The translations under genes were made by a program, and so were the position numbers. Shown in pieces: positions 12,514 to 64,000 of a DNA stretch of 64,000 nt. This DNA comes from an uncultured archaeon (GTDB taxonomy: Archaea > Asgardarchaeota > Jordiarchaeia > Jordiarchaeales > Jordiarchaeaceae): positions 31,912-95,911 of the forward strand of contig CAZECW010000187.1 in assembly GCA_964510585.1 (NCBI GenBank), written 5' to 3'. How positions within the stretch are numbered: the first letter of the stretch is position 1; every line of letters starts with the position of its first letter. The notes below the pieces were generated by a model, which ran no database searches, had not been told where the DNA came from, and worked only from the letters and a program-made list of their open reading frames with translations.

Positions 12514-14222
12514 AAAACCCACATTCCGCACCCCCTTTAACATAAATATATTTTTTCATAGACTGTTCCCAGAAGTGCAAGAATCTTCCGGTGAACCTCC
12601 CTGAGGTTAAGCACCGCAATAATCCTCTCCTCCCCCTCACCCCCCACTTCCAGCAACAGGTGTATCCCCTCAAACAATTGGAACACCCACCGCATGGTGG
12701 GCCGCTTGGTGGGCTTCCCCTTCTGATCCGGAATATGCTCCTCCCTTTCCTCCAGAACCCTGCGAAGCTTGTACTGAGCCACAGAGTAGACAAGCAGGCT
12801 GAGAACCATAATCATAACAAGACTCACGATCCTCTGAGGCTTCTTCAGAAACACCGAGGAGGCGAAGAAAAGGGGGTCTTTAAGGAACCGGAAGTCCCTC
12901 TCAACACTCTGCTGCCCCTTATACTCTTCCAGAAGCTGGTCGCTGTCCAGTTTCAGGTCGTTTGTGGCCACAATAAACTTGCCCCTCCTCCTCTCCTCAG
13001 CGTCCACCCGCTCCTCATCCACATCAAAGGAAGCCCTCACCCTGTAGACCCTTCTGGGGGGCTGCATGTTCCTAACCGGTCTACCCCTTCTTCCAGTCTT
13101 GTTGACCTCAACTATGTTCACTGAGCCTAATTTATGGTACTTCCACCCTTGAGCCGATTTTTGGACTGCGGAGAGGGCGTCCTCCGGGCAGTTGAATTCC
13201 CGGTTCCCCAGGTGCCACAGCTCCCTCTCAATCTTCTCCCCCTCCTTCTTTATGTTTCTTTTCAGGGTTTCCATCTCCCGCTGGTAGCCCTTCTCTGAGA
13301 AAACCACAAGCCACTTCTGCTCCACCCCACCATAATTGCTTCTGTACGCCTGGTGTTTGTAGCCCTCCAGGCTACTTTTAGCCATTTTTTCGGTTTCACA
13401 CTCCTGAATCAGCCTTTTTGCCTCCCAGATGTTCTCTGGGACGCGGCTTATCCACCTAACCAGGGGGGAGATTTCCCGGATGTTGTCATCACTGTAAAGT
13501 GCGGCGTCCATGACGTAGTACACTTCTTCGCCGTCTCCGGCGGCGAGTTCTTTTGAGAACTTTTTTATTACCTCTGGGAAGTGGTTTTTGTCGGAGGCGT
13601 TGCCACTCAGGACGTCGAGCCATATGGGGAGGTCTGACTGGGAGAGGGTGATGAGGGAGACTATGAACTGTTTTAGGTCGCTCCGCCCGTTCTTATTGGG
13701 GCGACCATAAGTTATGGTGATGGGGGTCATGTCTTCTTCTTGCTGTTGGTACTGGCCGTGGACGCTCATGGTGGTGGTGTCGAGGTGGAGGAATTTTTTC
13801 TCGACCCCCATGAGTTTCGCCACTTTGAGGGAGATGTGCATAAAGATCTGGGTGGGGTTGTTCTGGTACAGTCGGTCCAGGGCTCTTCCCAGGGTGTCGT
13901 CGTTGAAGTCTTCTGGTTTTAGGCCTTCCCTTATGAGGAGTTCTACGGGTTTGTTGTGCATGAATCCCGGGAAGAGGTAGAGGGGTTTGCTTGTGAATCC
14001 CAGGGCGTTTATGACCATGGCGAGGACTGCGTCGCCAGTTGTGACCTTCTGCTGGTCGTTTACTCCCACCATGCGGTTTATCTCTTCCACTAGGTGGATT
14101 TCCCTGCACACGCCGGAAACTATGCCCAGATGGTCGATTACTTTGCTGCGGTATTCCATGTCTCAACCATTGTTCTTGAAATTAATAAAAATATAAGTAA
14201 GGGTGCGGAAAGTGGGTTAAAA
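12514..14222 (-). mobile_element. insertion sequence, IS1634/IS4-family, about 1.7 kb, with imperfect terminal inverted repeats
   Basis: The left end reads 'AAAACCCACATTCCGCACCCCC' (12514-12540). The right end reads 'AAGGGTGCGGAAAGTGGGTT' (14199-14222), which is its reverse complement with 1-2 mismatches. The element encloses a single 540-aa DDE transposase gene. Confidence 0.75.
12537..14159 (-). CDS. IS1634/IS4-family DDE transposase
   Basis: It is 540 aa long. The N-terminal 'LGIVSGVCREI...GDAVLAMVINALGF' is typical of IS1634 transposases. The gene is flanked by terminal inverted repeats. Confidence 0.85.
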   Translation of the reverse strand: MEYRSKVIDHLGIVSGVCREIHLVEEINRMVGVNDQQKVTTGDAVLAMVINALGFTSKPLYLFPGFMHNKPVELLIREGLKPEDFNDDTLGRALDRLYQNNPTQIFMHISLKVAKLMGVEKKFLHLDTTTMSVHGQYQQQEEDMTPITITYGRPNKNGRSDLKQFIVSLITLSQSDLPIWLDVLSGNASDKNHFPEVIKKFSKELAAGDGEEVYYVMDAALYSDDNIREISPLVRWISRVPENIWEAKRLIQECETEKMAKSSLEGYKHQAYRSNYGGVEQKWLVVFSEKGYQREMETLKRNIKKEGEKIERELWHLGNREFNCPEDALSAVQKSAQGWKYHKLGSVNIVEVNKTGRRGRPVRNMQPPRRVYRVRASFDVDEERVDAEERRRGKFIVATNDLKLDSDQLLEEYKGQQSVERDFRFLKDPLFFASSVFLKKPQRIVSLVMIMVLSLLVYSVAQYKLRRVLEEREEHIPDQKGKPTKRPTMRWVFQLFEGIHLLLEVGGEGEERIIAVLNLREVHRKILALLGTVYEKIYLC

Positions 14223-38522: not shown

Positions 38523-40802
38523 TTAAACCACATGGGAAACCGGAGGAGCCGCCTGGTAGAATCTTTCCTCCACCCTCTCATACCACCGCATCATGTCTGG
38601 TGTGACAGTTGGATGAATCTTTTTCAAAGCAGCCTCAAAATGTCGCATATAAACCTTATCCGCATTTATGTCTTCTCGAAGAGCCAGGATAGCTGCCTCA
38701 CGGCACACTGCCTCAATATCTGCCCCAACAAAGTTTTTAGCTTCCCTATTCAACTTTTCAAGATCCACGTCATCGCCGAGAGGCATGCCTCTTCCCCGCG
38801 TGTATAACTCAAATATCTGTAAGCGTGCAGCATCATCAGGAGCAGGAACCAGAATTAAGCGGTCAAAACGGCCCGGACGCAAAAGCGCAGGGTCTAAAAT
38901 ATCAGGACGATTAGTAGCAGCAATCACAACCACATCATGTAAAGTCTCCAAACCATCAATCTCAGTTAGGAGAGAACTAATCACCCTCTCAGTAACCTGT
39001 GAGTCGCCAGCACCCATACCCCTACGTGGCGCCAATGCATCGAATTCATCAAAGAAAATGATGGCCGGCGACGCAAGACGCGCCTTCCGAAAAACCTCAC
39101 GCACTGCCTTCTCAGATTCTCCAACCCACTTCGATAGCAGCTCGGGGCCCTTTACTGGTATGAAGTTTGCTTCGGATTCTGTTGCTACTGCTCGTGCTAA
39201 CAAAGTTTTGCCGCATCCCGGAGGCCCGTATAGTAGTACTCCTTTTGGTGGTTGTACTCCCATTCTGGTGAATGCTTCGGGGTTTTTTAGGGGCCATTCT
39301 ACTGCTTCTCTGAGTTGTTGTTTTACTTCTTCTAGTCCTCCGATTTCTTCCCAGTGTACTGTTGGTACTTCTATGAGTACTTCTCTTATGGCTGAGGGTT
39401 GGATTTCTTTGAGTGCGTTTATGAAGTCTTCTTGGGTTACTTCCATAGATTCGAGGATGTGGGTGGGGATGGTTTCTTCTTCTAGGTCGATTCTGGGTAG
39501 GTATCTTCTTAGTGCTTTCATGGCTGCTTCTCGGCAGAGTGCTTCGAGGTCTGCTCCTACGAATCCGTGTGTGGTTTGGGCTAGTTGTATTATGTCTACG
39601 TTGTCTGCGATGGGCATTCCTCTTATGTGGATTTGTAGGATTTCTATGCGTCCCTGTTTGTCGGGTACGCTGATTTCTATTTCTCTGTCGAATCTTCCGG
39701 GTCTTCTGAGTGCGGGGTCGAGTGCGTTTACTCTGTTTGTGGCTCCTATTACTATGACTTTTCCTCTGCCTTTTAGTCCGTCCATGAGTGCTAATAGTTG
39801 GGCTACTACTCTTCTTTCCACTTCCCCTGTTACTTCTTCACGTTTGGGTGCTATGGAGTCTAGTTCGTCTAGGAATATGATGCTGGGGGCGTTGTCTTCG
39901 GCTTCTTTGAATATTTCTCGGAGTTTCTTTTCTGATTCTCCGTAGAATTTTGACATGATTTCGGGTCCGTTTATTGATATGAAGTGGGCTTCGGCTTCGT
40001 TAGCAACAGCTTTGGCGATAAGTGTCTTTCCACATCCCGGCGGCCCATGGAGTAGTACTCCTTTTGGTGGTTCTATTCCTAGGCGTTTAAATAGTTCGGG
40101 GTGTTTTAGTGGTAGTTCTATCATTTCTCTTACTTTTTGTATTTCTTCGTGTAGTCCTCCTATGTCTTCGTATGTTATTTGGGGTATCCCTGTGGGGATT
40201 TCTGTGAGGGGTTTTTCGCTGATGCGTAGTTCTGTTTGGGGTTTTACTATGACGATTCCTTTTGGTGTGGTTTTTACTACTACGAAGAGGATGGCTCGGC
40301 TTAGGACTGTGATGTGTATGGTGTCTCCTTGGTTTACGGGGTGTCCTACGAGTTTGCTTTTTACGAAGCGCTCGAAGCGTTCTTCTACTGGGAATCTTAC
40401 GCTGGTTGGGGCTAGTATTACTGATGTGGCTGGTTTTTCGTTGGCTTTTCTGATGATTACTTTGTCGCCTAGGCTTACGTTGGCGTTTCGTCTTAGGTAT
40501 CCGTCCATTCGGACTAGTCCTTTGTCTTTGTCTTCGGGGTATGCTGGCCAGGCTATGGCGGCGGTGGTTTTTTTGCCTCTTATTTCTACTATGTCTCCTG
40601 TTTGGATGCCTAGTTTTTCCATTGCGGCGTTATCTATTCTTACTATGAATCTTCCTGCGTCGCGCTTCTGCGCTTCTTCTACACGTAGCTCTATATCTAC
40701 CAATTTGACACCAACTTCAAATTTTTTGGAGGGTTTTTGAGCATCGGTTGTAAAGGGGTATTCTCTACTCATTACATTTGTTTTTGTTAGATTTAAAAAC
40801 AT
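38523..40802 (-). CDS. cdc48: CDC48/VCP-like AAA+ ATPase (two AAA domains)
   Basis: An N-terminal double-psi-barrel-like domain is followed by two Walker A motifs ('GPPGCGKT' twice), two Walker B motifs ('IIFLDELD', 'IIFFDEFD') and an SRH region. Confidence 0.9.
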
Positions 40803-47544: not shown

Positions 47545-49599
47545 ATGGTTAATATGATTAAGGCGTTCCACATTCTTCTGAAGTCCGGTGAGCCCCTTTT
47601 CCACAGGGTTTATGGTAAGGAGCAGGTTGATGAATCGCTTTTTTCGGGGTTTCTAGGCGCTGTTTACAACTTTGCTCAGGAACTGGGCCATGGAGATATT
47701 AAGACTGTGGAGGTTGGTGATGCAAGGTTCGTATGCGAAGTTTCTGAGAACTTGATTTTCGTGGCTGTTGTTGGAAAAGACGACGATGAACAAGAACTAA
47801 AAAATTTTCTAGGCTTTGCTTCTAGAGCCTTTGTTAACCGCTTCAGAGAGGAACTTAAAACATGGCGTGGAAATGTGTCTATCTTTAGGGAATTCACCCA
47901 AGAGTTAGATCACTTAGTGGAAGATTATCAAACGAAGCGCCTCCCCGGTAAGGTTAAACTGGTGCCTTTTCTAAGAGATTCTTCTGGGGGATCAAGTTAC
48001 CCCTTTGATGTGGAAATAGCCTCTGTTTTCTGTTTACTGGAAGATATAAGAGATCGTGGAGGGGGCTTTCTCTGGAAAAAGCCAGAGGAGGCGTTGAGGG
48101 GTATTGTAAGAGTTTTATGGCCTTTTTGGATAGTGCCTTTTGAGGATGGAGACCGGGGAGTTATAGTGGATGCTATGAGTATGGCGCCCCTCCAAATACG
48201 AACCAAGCGTTACTCGGCTTTAGATAAAGCTGATAATTTTCTCAAAATAAATAGTGTAGATGTGTTTGTAAATTCTCTTGAGGATCTAATATTGGATTTA
48301 GAAAGTGAGAAATCGGAGGAATTTCCACTATATGGATTTTTAGTTCCAGAGTTAGTTAAAGATTTGGAGATCAGCTTTTCTCAAGCCAGAGTGGGTGAGA
48401 CTAAGGATTATGTTGTAGTCCGCCCCCTTGTAACTCGCACCCAGACGGTTGAGAATAAAACTGTTTTTATGAAGTTAATTCAAGATTTGGAAACAAGTTC
48501 TCAAAGACTAATGGAAAAGGAAAATTTCTTAACATTAATAACTGAGAAGTGGCTTAAGGTAATAAATGAAAAGATGGTGGAGACCCGGGAAAGTTATAGA
48601 GTCAAAATAGAGGAAACAGTTAAGGATGTCGAGAAGCAGATTGGAATACTCTTACAGCTCAGAGAGGAGGAACTGAAAAAACTTGATGCTTGGTTTGCTG
48701 AAGCAGATAAGAATCTTATACTGGAAATAAAAGAATTGTTTGGTCCACTGATTGAGGTTTTAGAAGATGTGGCGCTGAAATCCACCGAGGAGATAGGAAA
48801 GTCAATCGATGAAAAAATTAGTGTGTTGGAAGTTATAGAGGGGAGAATTCAAAAATTAGCCAACGTTTCGGAGTATATGAATAAGACCAAGAAATTGGTG
48901 GAGAACATTTCTAAGAGTATAAAGAAAATTGATTCAACTATTGAGAAAATAAACAAGAAAATAGAAGTTGACAAAAATTCCATTCTGAAAGACTTTGACA
49001 GAAAAATCATGGAACAAAACAGTCGAGTAGACTCGCTAAAAGAAGAAGCAAAAGATGTCCTCAGCAAACAACAGTTTTTAATGGATAGAATTACATCTAA
49101 ACTCCAAGAATTAAGGCAGCTGATTCAACGTGAACGCAAAGAAGTCGACCGGCTTTTAAAATTGTTAACTTCATTGATAATTAAATTGCCGGACAAAATA
49201 TTTTCTCCATCTCTATTTTATATCCCCCTATATATTGGAAAATTCGAAGATACGAAGCAAGAAAGATTTTTTGTGGTACCCCCATTAGTTCTGCTAAAAT
49301 CGAATGAAACTATTAGTTGTGACTTTGGACAGAAAACACTTCCCCTGGATCTACCTAACCCTGCGTTTCTAGAAGCTGTAAAACGAAAGGCTGAAACACT
49401 AATTAATGATAGTAAGGAGCTAAAATTAGAAATTCTAAAGGGGTTTAAAAAATCAAATCTAATAAATTCGCAACAAATAGAGACAAGCGTTTACGAGGGC
49501 TTAAACAATCTATTACGCCTCAATATTCTTACTGAGAAGGACTTTCAAATTTTGAAAGCTAGAGCCAAGGAGGTTTTTAGGACGGAGGAGAGAGTTTGA
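47545..49599 (+). CDS. large coiled-coil protein with N-terminal Roadblock/longin-like α/β domain
   Basis: The N-terminal roughly 110 aa has a βααββα pattern ('IKAFHILLKSGEPLF...FLGAVYNFAQELG...IKTVEVGDARFVCEVSENLIFVAVVG'). The remainder is heptad-rich and K/E-rich. Confidence 0.5.
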   Translation: MVNMIKAFHILLKSGEPLFHRVYGKEQVDESLFSGFLGAVYNFAQELGHGDIKTVEVGDARFVCEVSENLIFVAVVGKDDDEQELKNFLGFASRAFVNRFREELKTWRGNVSIFREFTQELDHLVEDYQTKRLPGKVKLVPFLRDSSGGSSYPFDVEIASVFCLLEDIRDRGGGFLWKKPEEALRGIVRVLWPFWIVPFEDGDRGVIVDAMSMAPLQIRTKRYSALDKADNFLKINSVDVFVNSLEDLILDLESEKSEEFPLYGFLVPELVKDLEISFSQARVGETKDYVVVRPLVTRTQTVENKTVFMKLIQDLETSSQRLMEKENFLTLITEKWLKVINEKMVETRESYRVKIEETVKDVEKQIGILLQLREEELKKLDAWFAEADKNLILEIKELFGPLIEVLEDVALKSTEEIGKSIDEKISVLEVIEGRIQKLANVSEYMNKTKKLVENISKSIKKIDSTIEKINKKIEVDKNSILKDFDRKIMEQNSRVDSLKEEAKDVLSKQQFLMDRITSKLQELRQLIQRERKEVDRLLKLLTSLIIKLPDKIFSPSLFYIPLYIGKFEDTKQERFFVVPPLVLLKSNETISCDFGQKTLPLDLPNPAFLEAVKRKAETLINDSKELKLEILKGFKKSNLINSQQIETSVYEGLNNLLRLNILTEKDFQILKARAKEVFRTEERV

Positions 49600-55435: not shown

Positions 55436-56062
55436 TTGTCCGTGATACCTATGTTGGATGCTTTTTATCAAAAATTAGGTGAGGACATCAAAACCGCTAA
55501 CGATTTGGAGAAGAGGGGGGATTTTAGAGCTGCGGCGAAACTTTGGATTGAGATAGCTGAATACTGCTTAAAATTTGCTAGATCTGAATATGCTTCTGAG
55601 GAAATTAGAAAAAACCTTATTGAGAGGTCTGAAGGCTATATTGAGCATGCAAAAATGCTAAAAATTAGACCAGCACCCTTAAAGGGCTCCATAGAAAAAA
55701 GCTCCCAAGCAATAGACTATTTGGAAAAAGCTTTGGATGATAAGGTTAGAGCTGATAAACAGTGGATGGCCCTTGACCTAAACTCGTACATAATGACTAT
55801 GTTTAGTGTAATTGAAAAACTCCTCTACCACGTTTATATATCCAAAACGGGTAATCTTCCAAGCCTCGAAGAAACATTTACTTCTCTTGTTAAATGGGCC
55901 TACAGGGAAGGAATCATCAGTGATCACCCCGACAATATTGAATTCGTTAGGCTCCTTTACGAAAAATTATCCAAAAAATCGCAAAAAATAACTAGTGAAC
56001 AGGCTATGGAAGCAAGAGAAATAATGGAGCGAGTGTATAAAGAGTTATGCGAAAACCTATAA
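55436..56062 (+). CDS. MIT-domain protein (standalone; no AAA domain)
   Basis: Residues about 10-80 form a three-helix pattern that aligns by eye with Vps4/spastin MIT domains ('DLEKRGDFRAAAKLWIEIAEYCLKFA...RKNLIERSEGYIEHAKMLK'). Confidence 0.45.
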   Translation: MSVIPMLDAFYQKLGEDIKTANDLEKRGDFRAAAKLWIEIAEYCLKFARSEYASEEIRKNLIERSEGYIEHAKMLKIRPAPLKGSIEKSSQAIDYLEKALDDKVRADKQWMALDLNSYIMTMFSVIEKLLYHVYISKTGNLPSLEETFTSLVKWAYREGIISDHPDNIEFVRLLYEKLSKKSQKITSEQAMEAREIMERVYKELCENL

Positions 56063-57004: not shown

Positions 57005-57829
57005 TTACTTGCTAGAAATTTTTTTGAGCACATCTTGAATATCATATAAGCAGGTTAAGACACTTTCTATATCAAGTATATCCTGCTGGAGCAAGTTGCC
57101 AGCACGTGAAAGATCTATCTGTAATCTGAGCATAAAGGGCGAAAAACCTTCATTTAATTCAGGGTTTTCCGTATAAATCGCCGCGTGTATCAAGTCAACG
57201 CCACCAAAGCCCAGGTCGAAAAGCAAGTCGTCAACTTTCAAAAGAAATTCGACTATTCGTTGCTTATCACCCTTGGTGCGTAGTTCTGCCTCGGCATCAG
57301 ACAGACTCTTACTAATCTCGTCCAGCCTCTTTTTCAGAGAATCCGTGTTTATAGGCATCTCCTCTCGATACATTGTTGCCTCTGGACAGAAATTAAACCA
57401 CCACTCAAGGTAGTGCGCTGTGCTGCAAAAGAATTTTTTATCATGATTTAATGGCTCCACGGAAACAGTGTACATGCATTCTTCACCACAAATAGTGCAA
57501 ACCCCAGCCCCATCTTGATATGGTCTAATATCTCCACAAAAAGGTACACGAACGTACATAGCGTCGCCTTTAGGGGGTAAAAGTTTGGGGGGAATTTGCA
57601 ACTCTTTACTGAACGGTTTTGAGTCTAATTCGGCAAATATTGCAGTCCAGACCGGGCCTCGTGGAGTTCTAACTAAAAGAGGGTTTCTTCTCGGGTGGTT
57701 GTTGCAATATGTCCAATACGGATCTTCGATTTTGAATTTTCTAACCTCACAGAAGGGCTCTTGGCTTTTATCACTATTTGCTTTATTGAATTTACAGGTT
57801 CCACAGCAATCGCTGCCACCATTAGGCAT
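57005..57829 (-). CDS. cysteine-rich hypothetical protein (N-terminal Cys cluster, C-terminal helical domain)
   Basis: 'CCGTCKF...C..C' is followed by multiple further Cys residues. There is no family match by eye. Confidence 0.3.
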   Translation of the reverse strand: MPNGGSDCCGTCKFNKANSDKSQEPFCEVRKFKIEDPYWTYCNNHPRRNPLLVRTPRGPVWTAIFAELDSKPFSKELQIPPKLLPPKGDAMYVRVPFCGDIRPYQDGAGVCTICGEECMYTVSVEPLNHDKKFFCSTAHYLEWWFNFCPEATMYREEMPINTDSLKKRLDEISKSLSDAEAELRTKGDKQRIVEFLLKVDDLLFDLGFGGVDLIHAAIYTENPELNEGFSPFMLRLQIDLSRAGNLLQQDILDIESVLTCLYDIQDVLKKISSK

Positions 57830-58187: not shown

Positions 58188-59726
58188 GTGACTTTCACTA
58201 GGTTTTTTAAAGGCGGTGGGTTCGATTTGATGTCCCTGGATAGATTCAAGTGTACTTCTTGTAATGAGGCTGAGGCGGCTTACTACTGTGAGGAGTGCAA
58301 ATCAGCTTTCTGTCTGGGATGCGCCCAGGAGAGAAGGGAGGAGTTTTTTATCTGCGGTTCATGTGGCTTCAAGGAAACAAACCTTGGAATGGATAGGGAT
58401 AAGAAAAGCTCCTCAAGATGTCCGAATTGTGGTTCAACTGATTTGAGATCTGGGATTAGAAAATGGAAACTTTGTCCTAATTGTCGCTCTGGTATGGTTA
58501 TAAGCGTTCAAGATAAGAGGGTGGAGCTTAAAAAAACCTTTATTGATAATGTTAACAGCATTCTATATGGTTATGAATTGTTGAAAGATTTTTCGAGGAG
58601 ACTTAGGGAAACTAGAAAGAGGCTAATCTTTCTCAGGCACAGAAGGTATTTCCACTATCCAAAAATGGAGGAAACTCTAATCTCCCTTTTCCAAGAAATT
58701 ATTTCCTTGAAAAAGAAGGTGGAGGCGCGGGCTCAACAGGTCTTAAATGTGATTCAAGTGCAACTCGTGGATTTTTCTTACCCTGATAATTGGAGCCCAC
58801 GTGATTTTGCACAGATTCAAACAGCTGTGGACAGGATAAAAGCCGATGTGAATGACTACAAAGTATATGTGAAGGGTCTTATGGAACTACCTGAAAGGAA
58901 TCTCGATACGGTTGTTTCCTTGGTAAAATTGCTGAGTTTTCATTGGAAGTTCTTTGAGGAACATAGAGAAAAAATTGATTTAGAAATTGGGGAAAAACCT
59001 GTGGCAGCCATTCAGAGGGTAAAATATGTGGGAAGCTCTTTTCTCAGTTTAGAAAAATGTAGTGGAATACTTTTGTTAACAGATAAAAGGATAATTTTTA
59101 TCAGAGAAAAAGGAATTTTAAACAAGTCGTACCAGAAACATTTTGAACTCCCCCTAAAAGCTCACAAAATCGTAGTTGAAGGATCAATATGGAAAAAACT
59201 CTCTTTTGAAGGTTCCCAAGGGGATGTGCGATTCTCCGCATCCAAAAATACCCTAAAAGCAATTGAAAGATACGTAGAATTGGCTAAAAACTTTGATAAA
59301 AGTTCCATAAAGGATAAAACCCAAACTGACAAATTGGAAAAGCTGGAAATAACCCTAGACGACCTGAAAACTGAGCTACACAAAAAAATTATGAGCGTTT
59401 TCACACCCCAAATTAAGGAGCCCACTCGCGGATTTGAACTACAGCCACCTGTTCCCACCGTTACCCCCAGAGTTGCTCAAAAGTCCGCACCCCCACTAAC
59501 CACTTATAATCGGGTACAAGTTCAAACTGTGGAAGGATCAAAAAGAGGGGATGTTCTGGATTGGGAACGAAGGAAATTCTCCATTGAGCAGCTTCTCAAA
59601 AAAATTGAGGAACTTTGGCGGCGTGGAGACATTTCTGTAGAGGAGTACCTGAAAAGAATGAAGAATCTTTATGAGGAACTCTACGTCTTGAACCAGAAAT
59701 TAAAGGAAATCGAAGTTCAGGCGTAA
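58188..59726 (+). CDS. multi-zinc-finger / coiled-coil / PH-like (GRAM or bacterial-PH) / SHOCT-like tail protein
   Basis: The N-terminal B-box-like 'CTSCNEAEAAYYCEECKSAFCLGCA' is followed by two CxxC ribbons and a long coiled coil. 'GILLLTDKRIIFIREKG' is PH/GRAM-like. The C-terminal 'ELWRRGDISVEEYLKRMKNL' is SHOCT-like. Confidence 0.45.
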   Translation: MTFTRFFKGGGFDLMSLDRFKCTSCNEAEAAYYCEECKSAFCLGCAQERREEFFICGSCGFKETNLGMDRDKKSSSRCPNCGSTDLRSGIRKWKLCPNCRSGMVISVQDKRVELKKTFIDNVNSILYGYELLKDFSRRLRETRKRLIFLRHRRYFHYPKMEETLISLFQEIISLKKKVEARAQQVLNVIQVQLVDFSYPDNWSPRDFAQIQTAVDRIKADVNDYKVYVKGLMELPERNLDTVVSLVKLLSFHWKFFEEHREKIDLEIGEKPVAAIQRVKYVGSSFLSLEKCSGILLLTDKRIIFIREKGILNKSYQKHFELPLKAHKIVVEGSIWKKLSFEGSQGDVRFSASKNTLKAIERYVELAKNFDKSSIKDKTQTDKLEKLEITLDDLKTELHKKIMSVFTPQIKEPTRGFELQPPVPTVTPRVAQKSAPPLTTYNRVQVQTVEGSKRGDVLDWERRKFSIEQLLKKIEELWRRGDISVEEYLKRMKNLYEELYVLNQKLKEIEVQA

Positions 59727-59808: not shown

Positions 59809-60444
59809 TTACTCCTTTTCTTTGGGCTTCTTTGAACTCTCCAATTCCCTTTTCAGGTCTTCTAGCTCAGATGCCAAGGAAGATTTTTCTGTTATTATGT
59901 CCCCCTGCGGTACTTTGGGTTCCTCTATGCCCTCCAATGCAATTTCCGCCTCTAGACGGTTTAACTCACTTTCAATATCTCCTGCCTCTTCGACGCCCAT
60001 TTCGGAAGGAGTTGCCAAAATGTCTGAGCTTCTAGAAATATCGCGCATAGCTTCCTCTTGCTCTATAATCATTTCGAGTATCTTTTCTGAGTTGACGAGT
60101 TTTCGGGCGTTTTCAAGCTCTGCTCCGGCGAGTTCAAATGCTTCCTTGAGTTCTAAGACATCATAGGCTTCTTCTATGGCGATGATTCTCGTTTCAAGGT
60201 TCTCAATAAATGCGGTGTACTTGCCTAGAAAATTCTGGTATCTTCTGAATTTTCTGAGGGCGAATGTTGCCATGCCTTTGTTGCCCATTTTTAGATACTG
60301 TTTAGCCTTGTTTCTTTCCTCGATTGCCTTCCTCTCGTAGTTTCGTGAACGCAGAGTTAGCCTATTTATACTAGTTCTTAGCTGTGCGATTATCTCGTCC
60401 TTGTTTTTGGGCCTTTTTCCAAAGAGTATATCTTTAATACTCAT
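59809..60444 (-). CDS. ESCRT-III / Snf7-family protein
   Basis: The α1-α2 hairpin 'AIEERNKAKQYLKMGNKGMATFALRKFRRYQNFL...LETRIIAIEEA' is the Snf7 signature. The C-terminus is acidic with a MIM1-like 'LEDLKRELE'. Confidence 0.7.
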   Translation of the reverse strand: MSIKDILFGKRPKNKDEIIAQLRTSINRLTLRSRNYERKAIEERNKAKQYLKMGNKGMATFALRKFRRYQNFLGKYTAFIENLETRIIAIEEAYDVLELKEAFELAGAELENARKLVNSEKILEMIIEQEEAMRDISRSSDILATPSEMGVEEAGDIESELNRLEAEIALEGIEEPKVPQGDIITEKSSLASELEDLKRELESSKKPKEKE

Positions 60445-60540: not shown

Positions 60541-61578
60541 CTACCCATATATTCTGTTTATTTCTTTTTGTCTGGTTTCAATAAAATCGATGAAATTTTC
60601 CAGTGAAGGATCCTCCTCAGCTTCTTCATGAACTAGTTCTGCTATGCTGAGCAGGGAGGCTGCTACATGTGTGCGTGCGGGCTCGGATTTTATCTCGGGC
60701 TTAATGAGAGCTACTATTCTCTTTTCAAAATCATTGAAAGTTAAAATCCTATCCACAAGGAGAATAAATGATTCGGTTATTCCCCTCTCCAAGTCCTGTT
60801 TTTCGTCTAATATCAAGTTGGCTGCCAGATTTTTGAGGGCCGGTTTCACAATGTCCTCTCTAAACCAATTGAAAAGTTTGCTCTTCTTATCTGATGGAGG
60901 AAGAAAGCTTGAAGCAGGGGCACTAATATTTTTAGGCTCTTTTTTAAGGTTCTCCGCCATTTTATGAATATTTGAACTTTTAATGGTCTCCATTGCCGCT
61001 AGTACCAGCGACTTCACCCCCAAAACCACTTCTCCTCTACTAAACCCCTCTAACATTTTTTCCAGAGCATGTCTGGCTTCCTCGAAGGAAACCTCTTTTG
61101 AAATAAAAGACTTGAAAAGTTCCAAGATTTTTGCTCTTGTTTCCAGAGCTTCACTGTAACCAACGCTATCCAGTGTCAAGATTCTGTAGCCTGGATCCAG
61201 AACTTGCTTGTCAAACCATCTTACAACTATGTATTCATCAGTAATTCTCTCTAAATCTTTTAGAGTAAGTTTGGGATCAGCTTCCTCCAACTCATTGCAA
61301 AGCTGCGAAGCGAATGTTTCAAATACTGAAGAGACGTAGTTTTGGAGAACTTCATCCAATTTGAGACCTTCTAAAATCTTCTCAACCCTCTTTTTGAACG
61401 CGGGCTCAGAAATTTTTCCCTCCACCCGCTTTTTAAAATATGGAAACACTTTCTCCCTGACCATTTGAGATTTCTCAATAAAATTAGCTACAATACTGTC
61501 TAGGACGCCGAAAACCACATACTCAAAAAATTCTCTTAAGATTTTTAGACCCTCTTCTGAATCAAAAATGTAGGGCAT
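60541..61578 (-). CDS. hypothetical α-helical protein (345 aa) between the HerA-like ATPase and Snf7 genes
   Basis: There is no motif. Its position inside the putative operon is the only evidence. Confidence 0.3.
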   Translation of the reverse strand: MPYIFDSEEGLKILREFFEYVVFGVLDSIVANFIEKSQMVREKVFPYFKKRVEGKISEPAFKKRVEKILEGLKLDEVLQNYVSSVFETFASQLCNELEEADPKLTLKDLERITDEYIVVRWFDKQVLDPGYRILTLDSVGYSEALETRAKILELFKSFISKEVSFEEARHALEKMLEGFSRGEVVLGVKSLVLAAMETIKSSNIHKMAENLKKEPKNISAPASSFLPPSDKKSKLFNWFREDIVKPALKNLAANLILDEKQDLERGITESFILLVDRILTFNDFEKRIVALIKPEIKSEPARTHVAASLLSIAELVHEEAEEDPSLENFIDFIETRQKEINRIYG

Positions 61579-61594
61579 TTAAATTCACCAAGAA

Positions 61595-63964
61595 TCATTC
61601 GATGAGTGACCTGCGCAGCTGCTCGATTTTTTCGAAAGTTTTCCTCTTTAAGAAAACATATTCATCCTCAGTCATCCTACCCAACTCAAAGTACTCATGT
61701 AGGCTCCTCAAATATTTCTGGAATTTCTCTATCTGCCTCAGAATCTCCTCCTGCCTTTTCTCCTTATCAGACACCTGTTCTTCCTCCTCTTCCTCTAATG
61801 GTTTAACACCCACTGGTTCGCTTACCGGTTTACTAATTTCCGGTTTAACGCCCTCTTCGGCGCTGATTCTGGGTATTGGTGGTGGGCTGGGTAATTCTGG
61901 AAGTTCTTCCTCTGTTATGGTTTCTCTCGTTAAGGGTTTTGGTCTTGGTGTGCGGGGAGCCGCCTTTAAGCCTTTAACTGTCTCTTTAATTGTTGTTACC
62001 ATGCCTGCTGCCTCATTTTTAAGCGCCGAAGTGGATGAAACACTAATTATTGTGTTTTCCTCGGTTTCAACTATCCCTACGGCCAATCTTGATTTCTCCT
62101 TGGAGGCTAAAACTACAGGTACGCTTTTTGTTGTGTCTATCTCTATTTGCCAACCTTCCTCCTTCAATTTTGTGTAGATTTCACGGATGGCTTCTCTGCT
62201 ATGCGCCTGTGTCACTATTGGTTCTGCTACTCCCTCCATTTTGGGGGCAGGGTACAAATGATCATAAAATCTGTATTCCAAGACTCGTTTTAGGTAGTCG
62301 GAGGCCAAATCCGTCGGTAAGCTGAGCACGGGCGGGGCTGGTATTGATATGTCTGGGGACACTTCCACCATTTCTTCTTCTGTAACTTCTTCCAAAGCTT
62401 CTAAAGCCTCAGCCTCTGCTTCGGGTGTGCCTCTTGTTTCCTCAACAGTTTTCTCAATTTCTGGAGTGGCAACCTGTTTTGAAGCAATGGCTGTGAGTTC
62501 TTCAATTATCTTGGGAAGGGCTTCGCGGCCAGAATGCTGACTCAGCCTGGGTCTTATCTTAACTACAAGGGCACGGTTACTTGTGATAGATTCGTCTGAA
62601 ACAATGGTCATTCCAACGGGAATGTTTCGTATAAATCCAGAATCCTTTATTTCTATGGGGACTTCCGCTGGTGATCTTTTTATGAAGGCAATAATGTCTG
62701 GTTCATAGGACAAATAGTGTGTTATCAACACGTCTAGTTGAGATAAAATTCTACTATCTGTGGCTGAGGGTTGCTGGGTCACAAGCACTAATCCACAGCC
62801 GGGTTTTCTTCCCAGTTTAGCATATTCTACGAGGGGTTCAGAAGCTGCGGTAACACCCTTAGAGGGAGCGAGTAGATGCGCTTCGTCAATCATCAGCCAA
62901 GTCACAGGAATCTCCGCCTCAACCTTTTCATCGATTGTTTCGCCCAACTGTGCAGCCTCTTCCATTCTTGATATCTGTGCTCTCACCTTGAGTATCTTAC
63001 GTGCCAGTATACCAATGATTAGGGCACGCAGGCTGTCATCTAGATGACTTACGTCAATGACAGATACCTGATTGGGAACCGCTAACTGAGTTAAGCTAGT
63101 TCCTTTGGCTGAGAAGATTCCCCACTGATTCGCAGATGAAAGTCTAGCAACCAAAGCTCTTCTAGTGTCACGTCTAAATCCTTTGTCCTCAGAAATGATG
63201 TCGGAACAATTCTCGATACATTTAATTAAATCCTCTATGCTGTAATCGTTTCCTTTACCGGGGACATCTAGTTCTTGGTCATCAATTGTAGCTCTGTAGC
63301 CTTTTTTAACCCTATCAATGACCTGTTCTGTTAAGAGACCGAGCGTGCTAAACCTGTCTATACCAAAGGTGTGGCACCAATCGTCAGCTGTTAACTCTGA
63401 AGGCCTCAACGAGAAGGGCTTATCCCTCGTTTGCTCCGGAACCTTATCATAGAAACCGATTGGAATAAAGACCTTCACGTTATCGAAGCCCTTGGGAGTG
63501 AGACTCCATTTTTCAAGAGCCTCCAATTCCTTTTCGTCCCAATTGGGGTACTTCATACTCCAAAAAATTCCCATAGGATCAACAATAATTGTAGCGATTC
63601 CCAGTCTTGATTCAGCCAATTCCTCCGCAATGACTCCCATAGTGTAGGATTTGCCAGAGCCCCTATGACCACTTATAAATATAACGTGAGGCTTTACCCC
63701 ATCAAGAAGAACCTTACAACCAAGCAGGTTCACATCTTTGCTGGTTCTCTCTCCCACACAACCAATGTAAAATGTTCCCTTGCAGCCAAGTTTGGCTTGT
63801 GTGGATTTTGTTCTCCCCAAAATTACTGATTCGCCCAAACTGTCTCTCAGAACGGTGAGTGGAGTGTCAACTATTTTAGGCGTGTCAACTATGTTTACCT
63901 TCTCAGAGTTAATTATGCTCGCCTCACCAAGAATGTAGGCCAACGCCTGCCAATAGTCCTTCAA
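61595..63964 (-). CDS. HerA/FtsK-superfamily (DUF87-like) ATPase with long acidic/Pro-rich linker and SHOCT-like C-terminal tail
   Basis: Walker A 'ISGHRGSGKSYT', 'IIVDPMGIF' (HerA 'DPHGEY'-like), Walker B 'LMIDEAHLL' and 'GRKPGCGLVLVTQQPS' are present. The C-terminal 'LGRMTEDEYVFLKRK' is SHOCT-like. Confidence 0.7.
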   Translation of the reverse strand: MKDYWQALAYILGEASIINSEKVNIVDTPKIVDTPLTVLRDSLGESVILGRTKSTQAKLGCKGTFYIGCVGERTSKDVNLLGCKVLLDGVKPHVIFISGHRGSGKSYTMGVIAEELAESRLGIATIIVDPMGIFWSMKYPNWDEKELEALEKWSLTPKGFDNVKVFIPIGFYDKVPEQTRDKPFSLRPSELTADDWCHTFGIDRFSTLGLLTEQVIDRVKKGYRATIDDQELDVPGKGNDYSIEDLIKCIENCSDIISEDKGFRRDTRRALVARLSSANQWGIFSAKGTSLTQLAVPNQVSVIDVSHLDDSLRALIIGILARKILKVRAQISRMEEAAQLGETIDEKVEAEIPVTWLMIDEAHLLAPSKGVTAASEPLVEYAKLGRKPGCGLVLVTQQPSATDSRILSQLDVLITHYLSYEPDIIAFIKRSPAEVPIEIKDSGFIRNIPVGMTIVSDESITSNRALVVKIRPRLSQHSGREALPKIIEELTAIASKQVATPEIEKTVEETRGTPEAEAEALEALEEVTEEEMVEVSPDISIPAPPVLSLPTDLASDYLKRVLEYRFYDHLYPAPKMEGVAEPIVTQAHSREAIREIYTKLKEEGWQIEIDTTKSVPVVLASKEKSRLAVGIVETEENTIISVSSTSALKNEAAGMVTTIKETVKGLKAAPRTPRPKPLTRETITEEELPELPSPPPIPRISAEEGVKPEISKPVSEPVGVKPLEEEEEEQVSDKEKRQEEILRQIEKFQKYLRSLHEYFELGRMTEDEYVFLKRKTFEKIEQLRRSLIE

Positions 63965-64000
63965 ACTTTTAAGATCAATTTGTTCCGCAATATATCTTCT

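Follow-up and report, generated by a model that had tools for sequence, protein, structure and literature searches.

The window analysed here, 64,000 nucleotides of contig CAZECW010000187.1 from an uncultured archaeon of the Jordiarchaeales, contains an open reading frame (ORF) on the forward strand whose product (hereafter the target protein) is very likely the Jordarchaeia/Freyarchaeia orthologue of Znr_CC_PH_SB, an Asgard-specific protein family. [quoted passage not shown] The closest homologues of the target protein are 92-98% identical to it and come from metagenome-assembled genomes of 'Candidatus Jordarchaeia' and 'Freyarchaeota', which places the source lineage.

The family Znr_CC_PH_SB (asCOG cog.011556) was described by Makarova et al. 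(2024, mBio 15:e00335-24, PMC10936438; preprint PMC11188069). Its members consist of three zinc ribbons, a coiled coil, a PH domain and a steadiness box (SB), in that order, and the family has been termed 'likely to be ancestral in Asgardarchaeota' and 'a likely ESCRT-I component', with a PH domain 'expected to be membrane associated' (PMC10936438). All four elements are found in the target protein, which has three putative zinc ribbons, a helical stalk, a predicted PH domain and a C-terminal SB, the last recognised by transitive homology to UEV-Vps23 proteins. A preliminary description of this locus had called the architecture unusual, a judgement that falls with the match of the domain order to the published family. 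In the accessible part of Table S2 of PMC10936438, the Lokiarchaeum GC14_75 member As_004-p_01543 stands in the gene order C69 dipeptidase, L35Ae, cog.011556, MetE, with a Vps20-family ESCRT-III gene on the opposite strand. The relative P0133 (locus L013), which matches our family profile at E 2.5e-126, has the same neighbourhood of C69 peptidase, L35Ae, family member, MetE and Vps20 as that part of the table gives for As_004-p_01543, and P0012 (L004) and P0143 (L015) lie in close variants of it. Membership of the target protein in cog.011556 is thus assigned on the basis of its matching architecture and positional orthology. As the main text of PMC10936438 names neither Jordarchaeia nor Freyarchaeia, the target protein counts as a new member of the family reported in 2024, not as a new family.

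The published family and the target protein have in common their domain order, named members that are exclusively Asgard, and a Vps20-type ESCRT-III neighbour. In contrast to Loki-type members, which are 650-700 residues long and have a longer linker, the target protein has 498 residues and a short linker, and is only 20-30% identical to them. Its gene also differs in setting from the published Lokiarchaeum case, as the ESCRT-IIIB gene beside it shares its operon with the gene of a HerA-like ATPase, a protein absent from the text of that paper. An exhaustive profile search of 1.84 billion representative proteins recovered 179 family representatives at E ≤ 1e-3 and 74 at E ≤ 1e-30. Those that carry organism names, a minority of the 179, are all Asgard (Freyarchaeota, Jordarchaeia and Lokiarchaeota/Promethearchaeota). 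The breadth of the family is visible only in this search, as the first homologue search returned 12 relatives and, in the same word-indexed database, a profile built from a diverse alignment brought up 13; scanning genome contigs with the family yielded 4 close loci. A separate observation concerns P0225, a protein of 351 residues that begins with a CpXC zinc domain (Pfam E 5e-20). Its last ~140 residues are near-identical to those forming the linker and SB tail in the Loki-type family member P0012, so that it is either a relative that has swapped domains or a chimera produced by assembly.

Residues of the target protein are numbered here from the GTG start of the mechanical ORF (58188-59726, forward strand), which encodes 512 residues. 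The ORF itself had been correctly recognised, but its start probably lies 14 codons further in, at M15. Because the homologues begin at the position of M15 (12/12) and the motif GGTGG is found 10-14 nucleotides 5' of the ATG at 58230, translation probably starts at this ATG and not at the GTG at 58188, giving a protein of the same length as homologue P0001. Scans with bacterial-type promoter and terminator models, which are not applicable to archaea, gave results no better than those for shuffled sequences.

The domain structure of the target protein was modelled with AlphaFold2 using 13 input sequences (mean predicted local distance difference test score, pLDDT, of 78.9). The model consists of a β-rich zinc region (residues 20-106), helices (107-263), a β-sandwich with a capping helix (271-367) and a further two or three helices (369-403), followed by a disordered linker (about 411-450) and a helical hairpin (450-478 and 484-511). 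The zinc region contains the pairs C22/25, C34/37, C42/45, C56/59, C78/81 and C96/99, and these 12 Cys residues are invariant or at least 90% conserved and are the best-conserved positions when 39 relatives with only 19-30% identity to the target protein are aligned. The presence of 12 conserved Cys in six CxxC pairs suggests three Cys4 zinc sites, in keeping with the earlier zinc-finger call (a B-box-like finger followed by two ribbons), although all Pfam matches in the region (ANCHR-like B-box, zf-B_box, Zn_ribbon_8 and DZR) are below cut-off. The zf-B_box profile (PF00643) scores 17.7 bits against a cut-off of 24.1 and the ANCHR-like BBOX profile (PF22586) 19.9 against 27; one orthologue carries the NCBI name 'B-box zinc finger protein'. 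The coiled coil of roughly 200 residues that had been proposed to follow is confirmed as a long helical region, but in the model it forms a three-helix bundle of ~157 residues (107-263). The sandwich is predicted to have a PH fold, as had been suspected, and Foldseek searches with it returned bacterial PH structures as well as those of DH-PH, Sec7-PH, dynamin and Lam6, the lowest E value being 9e-6. Its closest sequence match is the GLUE domain of Vps36 (PF11605, under the curated cut-off), while generic PH, PTB and GRAM domains score structurally as well as GLUE or better; the GRAM and bPH_2 profiles of Pfam, which had been put forward for checking, did not identify it. The linker is poorly conserved, and in Loki-type relatives it is far longer and N/Q-rich.

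The C-terminal hairpin connects the target protein with ESCRT-I. Weak matches to the Pfam profile Vps23_core (PF09454) were obtained for 7 of 9 orthologue tails, the tail of the target protein itself scoring 18.7-18.9 bits against a cut-off of 26.8. In the exhaustive search, the family profile matched P0265 and P0268 with E ~1e-7 by the tail region only. Both are Asgard E2/UEV proteins of the UEV-Vps23 type with the same terminal hairpin, and the hairpin of P0268 clears the Vps23_core cut-off (31.8 versus 26.8 bits). A BLASTP comparison of the target tail with the SB of P0268 gives 36% identity over 55 residues (E 3e-11). Due to this homology to UEV-Vps23 hairpins, one of which passes the Pfam cut-off, the tail is assigned as a Vps23-type ESCRT-I SB. 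The tail had previously been labelled SHOCT-like, and this label is wrong. SHOCT domains (PF09851) do resemble it in being a short C-terminal helix-turn-helix whose turn is similar to G-x-I-[ST]-x-E-E-[FY]; however, the SHOCT profile gave no match at E ≤ 10 in the target tail, in the tail of the neighbouring ATPase or in 18 orthologue tails, with the limit that HMMER filters may lose matches above E ~0.1. This result, together with the significant homology to the Vps23 SB, rules out a SHOCT identity. Two relatives in the family do give SHOCT matches (E 0.014-0.03), explaining why the G-x-I-S-x-E-E-Y turn of the target protein looked SHOCT-like by eye. The accompanying view of the hairpin as a module for protein-protein assembly is reasonable.

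The third line of evidence is gene linkage. As had been noted, the gene of the target protein converges on a Snf7 gene, and the two stop codons are 82 nucleotides apart. The best PDB matches of this Snf7 protein are the Heimdallarchaeota ESCRT-IIIB structure 9ftl (E 1.5e-13), the Vps20/32/60-like structure 9fn1 and yeast Snf7, and it is accordingly classed by sequence as ESCRT-IIIB. The second Snf7 gene of the operon lies just outside the window and is seen in locus L001; its product is assigned to ESCRT-IIIA on account of its matches to CHMP1/2/3. In an identity matrix the orthologue groups of ESCRT-III A and B separate, and the Loki-type neighbour is nearer the B group. Nine distinct loci of the target family were compared, including the window, and a convergent ESCRT-III gene is present within two genes of the family member in eight of them. 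In the window and its close relatives (L008-L010, L019), the convergent ESCRT-III gene is followed by a gene for a 345-residue protein, the HerA-like gene and a second ESCRT-III gene. Freyarchaeum deiterrae (L001/L011) has the same order with three small inserted genes, one of them a Snf7 fragment, and in the Jordarchaeales loci L005 and L026 the HerA-like gene and second ESCRT-III gene follow the convergent ESCRT-III gene. The ESCRT-III gene is convergent or one gene off in the Loki-type loci L004, L013 and L015, L014 has two adjacent ESCRT-III genes in convergent orientation, and in L016 two Snf7-like genes lead to Vps4 and Vps25. This adjacency recurs across lineages that are only 20-30% identical to each other. 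The conserved genomic partner of the target family across lineages is ESCRT-III, not the HerA-like ATPase. The Snf7 fragment of F. deiterrae (L001 11583-11825, reverse strand; 80 residues, profile E 2e-25) is immediately convergent to the target orthologue and is separated by two more small genes from the full-length ESCRT-IIIB gene, an arrangement that resembles the remnant of a rearrangement.

These results bear on the possibility that the target protein is an unrelated zinc-finger coiled-coil protein, such as a nucleic-acid-binding regulator or a defence component, that stands beside Snf7 by chance. Zinc ribbons and helical bundles are generic, the direct Pfam matches of the target protein are all sub-threshold, and the HerA and mad8 models of PADLOC match the neighbouring ATPase; HerA ATPases are known in defence systems. 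A chance association is nevertheless hard to reconcile with a convergent ESCRT-III gene in eight of nine loci from distant lineages and with a tail that is significantly homologous to Asgard UEV-Vps23 proteins, and the target protein has no PADLOC match, making this explanation highly improbable. The 345-residue protein, a 274-residue Cys-rich protein and a 208-residue MIT-like protein of the window are likewise without PADLOC matches, and given these null results the defence-system reading was dropped.

If the target protein functions as an adaptor of the ESCRT-I/II type, a mechanism can be proposed in which its architecture, tail homology and gene linkage are taken from the present analysis and the rest is modelled on eukaryotic ESCRT-I and ESCRT-II as these are summarised in PMC10936438. 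The PH domain would anchor the protein on the membrane and, as in GLUE domains, might bind ubiquitin. The zinc modules could hold cargo, a ubiquitin-like tag or a partner protein, similar to the NZF fingers of yeast Vps36, while the three-helix stalk would serve as a spacer. The tethered SB would pack with the SBs of UEV-Vps23, a Vps28-like protein and an SB-bearing Vps22 to form an ESCRT-I-type headpiece. The site of this headpiece would determine where the adjacent Vps20-type ESCRT-IIIB begins to polymerise. The proposed adaptor resembles Vps23/Tsg101 of ESCRT-I (PF09454) in its homologous SB hairpin and the helical stalk before it. In contrast to Vps23/Tsg101, it has no UEV/E2-like domain (no UQ_con or UEV match was found by Pfam in the target protein, whose N-terminus is the zinc module instead) and has zinc modules and a PH domain in its place; the model shows its stalk as a bundle of three helices packed intramolecularly, and its PF09454 score is sub-threshold. 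Unlike Vps36/EAP45 of ESCRT-II, it lacks winged-helix domains, and its zinc modules are N-terminal and not inserted in the PH domain.

A second system with which the target protein can be compared is CdvA, which recruits CdvB in the division of TACK archaea and consists of a PRC barrel, a coiled coil and a C-terminal peptide. Both proteins combine a membrane-binding domain, a helical region and a hairpin reported to be SB-like, and both have an ESCRT-III gene next door. This parallel in layout suggests an alternative in which the target protein is a direct, membrane-bound template that recruits ESCRT-IIIB without ESCRT-I or ESCRT-II partners. The conserved neighbour is indeed ESCRT-IIIB rather than Vps23, Vps28 or Vps22, a similarity of the SB to the CdvA hairpin by HHpred has been reported (PMC10936438), and weak Pfam CdvA matches were obtained on the tails of several relatives. 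On the other hand, the target protein has a PH domain and no PRC barrel. The E3B peptide and winged-helix pairing are also missing; in the adjacent ESCRT-IIIB, Pfam detects Snf7 alone, with no winged-helix extension. Furthermore, the tail is far nearer to the Asgard Vps23 SB (E 3e-11) than to CdvA (E ~0.004-0.06), and the placement of the L016 gene beside Vps4 and Vps25 suits a multi-complex ESCRT pathway. A CdvA-like role for the target protein is therefore considered rather unlikely.

Several points weigh against an assignment of the target protein to the Znr_CC_PH_SB family and to an ESCRT-I/II-like role. Membership follows from architecture and positional orthology, not from direct alignment. 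The matches of the target protein's own sequence to Pfam (Vps23_core, bPH_3, Vps36 GLUE and B-box) are all under the curated cut-offs, so that the domain assignments stand on structure prediction and transitive homology. No ESCRT gene was found near the family member in L012, and a PDB sequence-profile search with the alignment of the target tail yielded no ESCRT-I chain. The profile searches of the PDB with the target and ATPase tails returned designed repeat proteins, phycobilisome linkers and similar chains, and are uninformative for a hairpin of 60 residues.

The features of the locus are collected in Table 1. The gene beyond the ESCRT-IIIB gene and that of the 345-residue protein encodes a HerA-fold ATPase, which scores 54.7 bits against PF01935 (DUF87; cut-off 23.2) and which Foldseek relates to HerA hexamers (E 8e-16). 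Its score with the HerA equivalogs of NCBIfam is 47 bits where the cut-offs are 800-970, placing it well below the equivalog level. Full-length homologues have 1012-1017 residues. No nuclease family appears beside the ATPase in any of the locus tables, in which no search aimed at NurA was made. An AlphaFold2 model of P0013, which is 98% identical to the ATPase of the window (pLDDT 82.8), shows an all-helical N-terminal domain, then the ATPase core and, after a linker, an α/β domain. From there a second linker, which is disordered (896-954), leads to the terminal hairpin (956-983 and 989-1011), and these two elements are laid out like the C-terminus of the target protein. This hairpin is found only in the Jordarchaeia and Freyarchaeia homologues (P0013-P0038), as the homologues labelled Hel, Loki and Hod stop about 100 residues earlier.

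Table 1. Features of the target locus and their positions in the window (residues of the target protein in the numbering of the 512-residue ORF).
Feature	Position	Strand	Basis or remark
Probable coding sequence of the Znr_CC_PH_SB protein, 498 residues	58230..59726	+	homologue starts; GGTGG
N-terminal zinc module	58251..58505	+	six CxxC pairs suggesting three Cys4 sites
Three long helices (107-151, 158-190, 204-258/263), antiparallel bundle or stalk	58506..58976	+	AlphaFold2
Predicted PH-fold domain, seven strands (271-350) and capping helix (353-367); contains 'GILLLTDKRIIFI'	58989..59288	+	
Disordered Pro-rich linker, residues ~411-449	59418..59534	+	pLDDT 32-39; variable, gap-rich alignment columns
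C-terminal helical hairpin (450-478 and 484-511), assigned as Vps23-type SB	59535..59723	+	Pfam, profile search, BLASTP
ESCRT-IIIB (Vps20/32/60-type Snf7), convergent, 82-nucleotide gap to target gene	59809..60444	-	Pfam Snf7 E 9e-18
345-residue protein of no known family, directly downstream of the ATPase	60541..61578	-	also L001 14448-15515, L017 8615-9649
HerA/FtsK-superfamily ATPase, N-terminal ~223 residues beyond the window end	61595..64000	-	Pfam DUF87 E 2e-14; HerA_C
C-terminal hairpin of the ATPase, weakly SB-like	61598..61768	-	residues 956-1011 of the 1012-residue orthologue; disordered linker before

The preliminary description held that the ATPase ends in the same SHOCT-like tail as the target protein and took this to suggest a shared oligomerisation or membrane-association module linking the two. 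What stands of the first claim is a shared layout and a weak similarity, as neither tail is a SHOCT domain. In the AlphaFold2 models each tail is a helical hairpin of ~55 residues that follows a disordered linker, and in both, 20-32 residues before the C-terminus, the motif h-x-x-G-x-[IM]-[ST]-x-E-[DE]-Y is found. Among 411 ORFs this 11-residue motif occurs only in these two families, with the reservation that the pattern was composed post hoc from both tails. Alignment of the two tails by hhalign with narrow alignments gives P values of 0.018-0.023 over 18-19 columns, and use of a 91-sequence SB profile gives P 0.0023 (probability 12.7%, 23 columns). When an SB hidden Markov model was run on 120 HerA-like proteins, the top ~20 matches all fell on the ATPase tail in the same register, with scores of only 2-9 bits, and when the ATPase tail is compared by BLASTP with the SB of P0268, a bona fide SB from an Asgard protein, they align with E 0.003, again in this register. 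Weak Pfam GvpG matches were obtained in the same region from both kinds of tail (8 of 9 ATPase tails and 3 of 9 target tails), while none of nine ATPase tails matched Vps23_core. The likeness of the tails is weak and is confined to helix 1 and the turn.

The second claim amounts to proposing that the two hairpins are one module that couples both proteins or anchors them to the same assembly or membrane site. This proposal gains from the tail comparison and from the proximity of both genes, which in all Jordarchaeia and Freyarchaeia loci are found within about 2-4 kb of one another. It has to contend, however, with the low hhalign probabilities (2-13%), with ATPases of the Hel, Loki and Hod types that adjoin ESCRT-III genes yet have no tail, and with the association of the target family with ESCRT-III in lineages without an ATPase gene nearby. 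The tail of the ATPase being restricted to Jordarchaeia and Freyarchaeia, and ESCRT-III being the conserved partner, a shared module is possible but doubtful.

The association of the ATPase with ESCRT-III extends beyond the loci of the target family. In Freyarchaeia and Jordarchaeales, at two loci of Helarchaeota and at several from metagenomes, the HerA-like gene stands between or beside genes of ESCRT-IIIA and ESCRT-IIIB (in all, the window, L001, L005, L006, L017-L020, L022, L023, L026 and L027). In L017, which is labelled Promethearchaeota/Hod, its cluster also holds Snf7 and a small GTPase-RING protein, and it lies directly beside the genes for Vps4, Vps25, ubiquitin, E1 and E2. The 345-residue protein often accompanies the ATPase and is encoded directly downstream of it. 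It is 71% identical in Freyarchaeum (L001) and 35% identical in L017 (E 8e-78), where it has the same place relative to the ATPase gene, and searches of Pfam, NCBIfam and PADLOC gave no family match for it. A weaker relative of this protein follows the ATPase in L035 and L036, where Snf7 is absent, and Snf7 neighbours are likewise lacking for more distant HerA-like proteins, which are shorter (32-36% identity), and for a homologue from Bathyarchaeota. In full-text searches, no paper was found that links HerA, DUF87 or FtsK to ESCRT-III in Asgard archaea, with the proviso that the published Table S2, of which a part was accessible, may list the gene unflagged; HerA is unmentioned in the text of the Makarova preprint (PMC11188069) and of Hatano et al. 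(2022). The association of a HerA-type ATPase with ESCRT-III is genuine and apparently unreported. No Vps4 gene was found in the window, in which the only related hit was Cdc48 at 38523-40802. It has been considered whether this hexameric type of ATPase might serve the ESCRT system of Asgard archaea as a second motor besides Vps4, one that in Jordarchaeia and Freyarchaeia has gained an SB-like tethered hairpin which could dock onto Znr_CC_PH_SB, encoded on the other side of the ESCRT-IIIB gene; we rate this idea as unlikely. Based on the known roles of the FtsK-HerA superfamily, such an ATPase could work as a translocase in the manner of FtsK, removing DNA or some other polymer where scission takes place.

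Other genes of the window deserve mention. A protein of 208 residues (55436-56062, forward strand) has a sub-threshold MIT match (E 8e-5) and a faintly HEPN-like C-terminal half, and in L001-L003 a protein of 204-206 residues, for which no Pfam match is on record, occupies the same place upstream of the proteasome alpha gene. Since MIT domains bind ESCRT-III tails, the 208-residue protein may be part of the same ESCRT system. Between the proteasome alpha gene and that of the target protein lies the Cys-rich ORF of 274 residues (57005-57829, reverse strand), which matched no family; it is absent from this place in F. deiterrae, and L002 and L003 have only a gene for 74 residues there. Further away, a protein of 684 residues (47545-49599, forward strand) starts with a FUZ/MON1/HPS1-type longin domain (Fuz_longin_1, E 6e-7, above the cut-off) and continues with long coiled coils, and looks like an Asgard signature protein of the trafficking type. 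An ORF of 540 residues (12537-14159, reverse strand) is transposase-like by eye and is located in a block whose G+C content is raised (0.50 compared with ~0.41), and may be an insertion element.

Taken as an orthologue of Znr_CC_PH_SB, the target protein adds a Jordarchaeia/Freyarchaeia member to a family that had been put forward as an ESCRT-I-like component of Asgard archaea and corrects a tempting mislabelling of the SB as SHOCT. The near-universal pairing of this family with Vps20-type ESCRT-III is a clue to how ESCRT-III of Asgard archaea may be directed to membranes without a eukaryote-style ESCRT-0. If the proposed role of the ATPase is true, the enzyme encoded in these ESCRT-III operons could be a motor that has gone unrecognised in the archaeal precursor of the machinery for membrane scission in eukaryotes.

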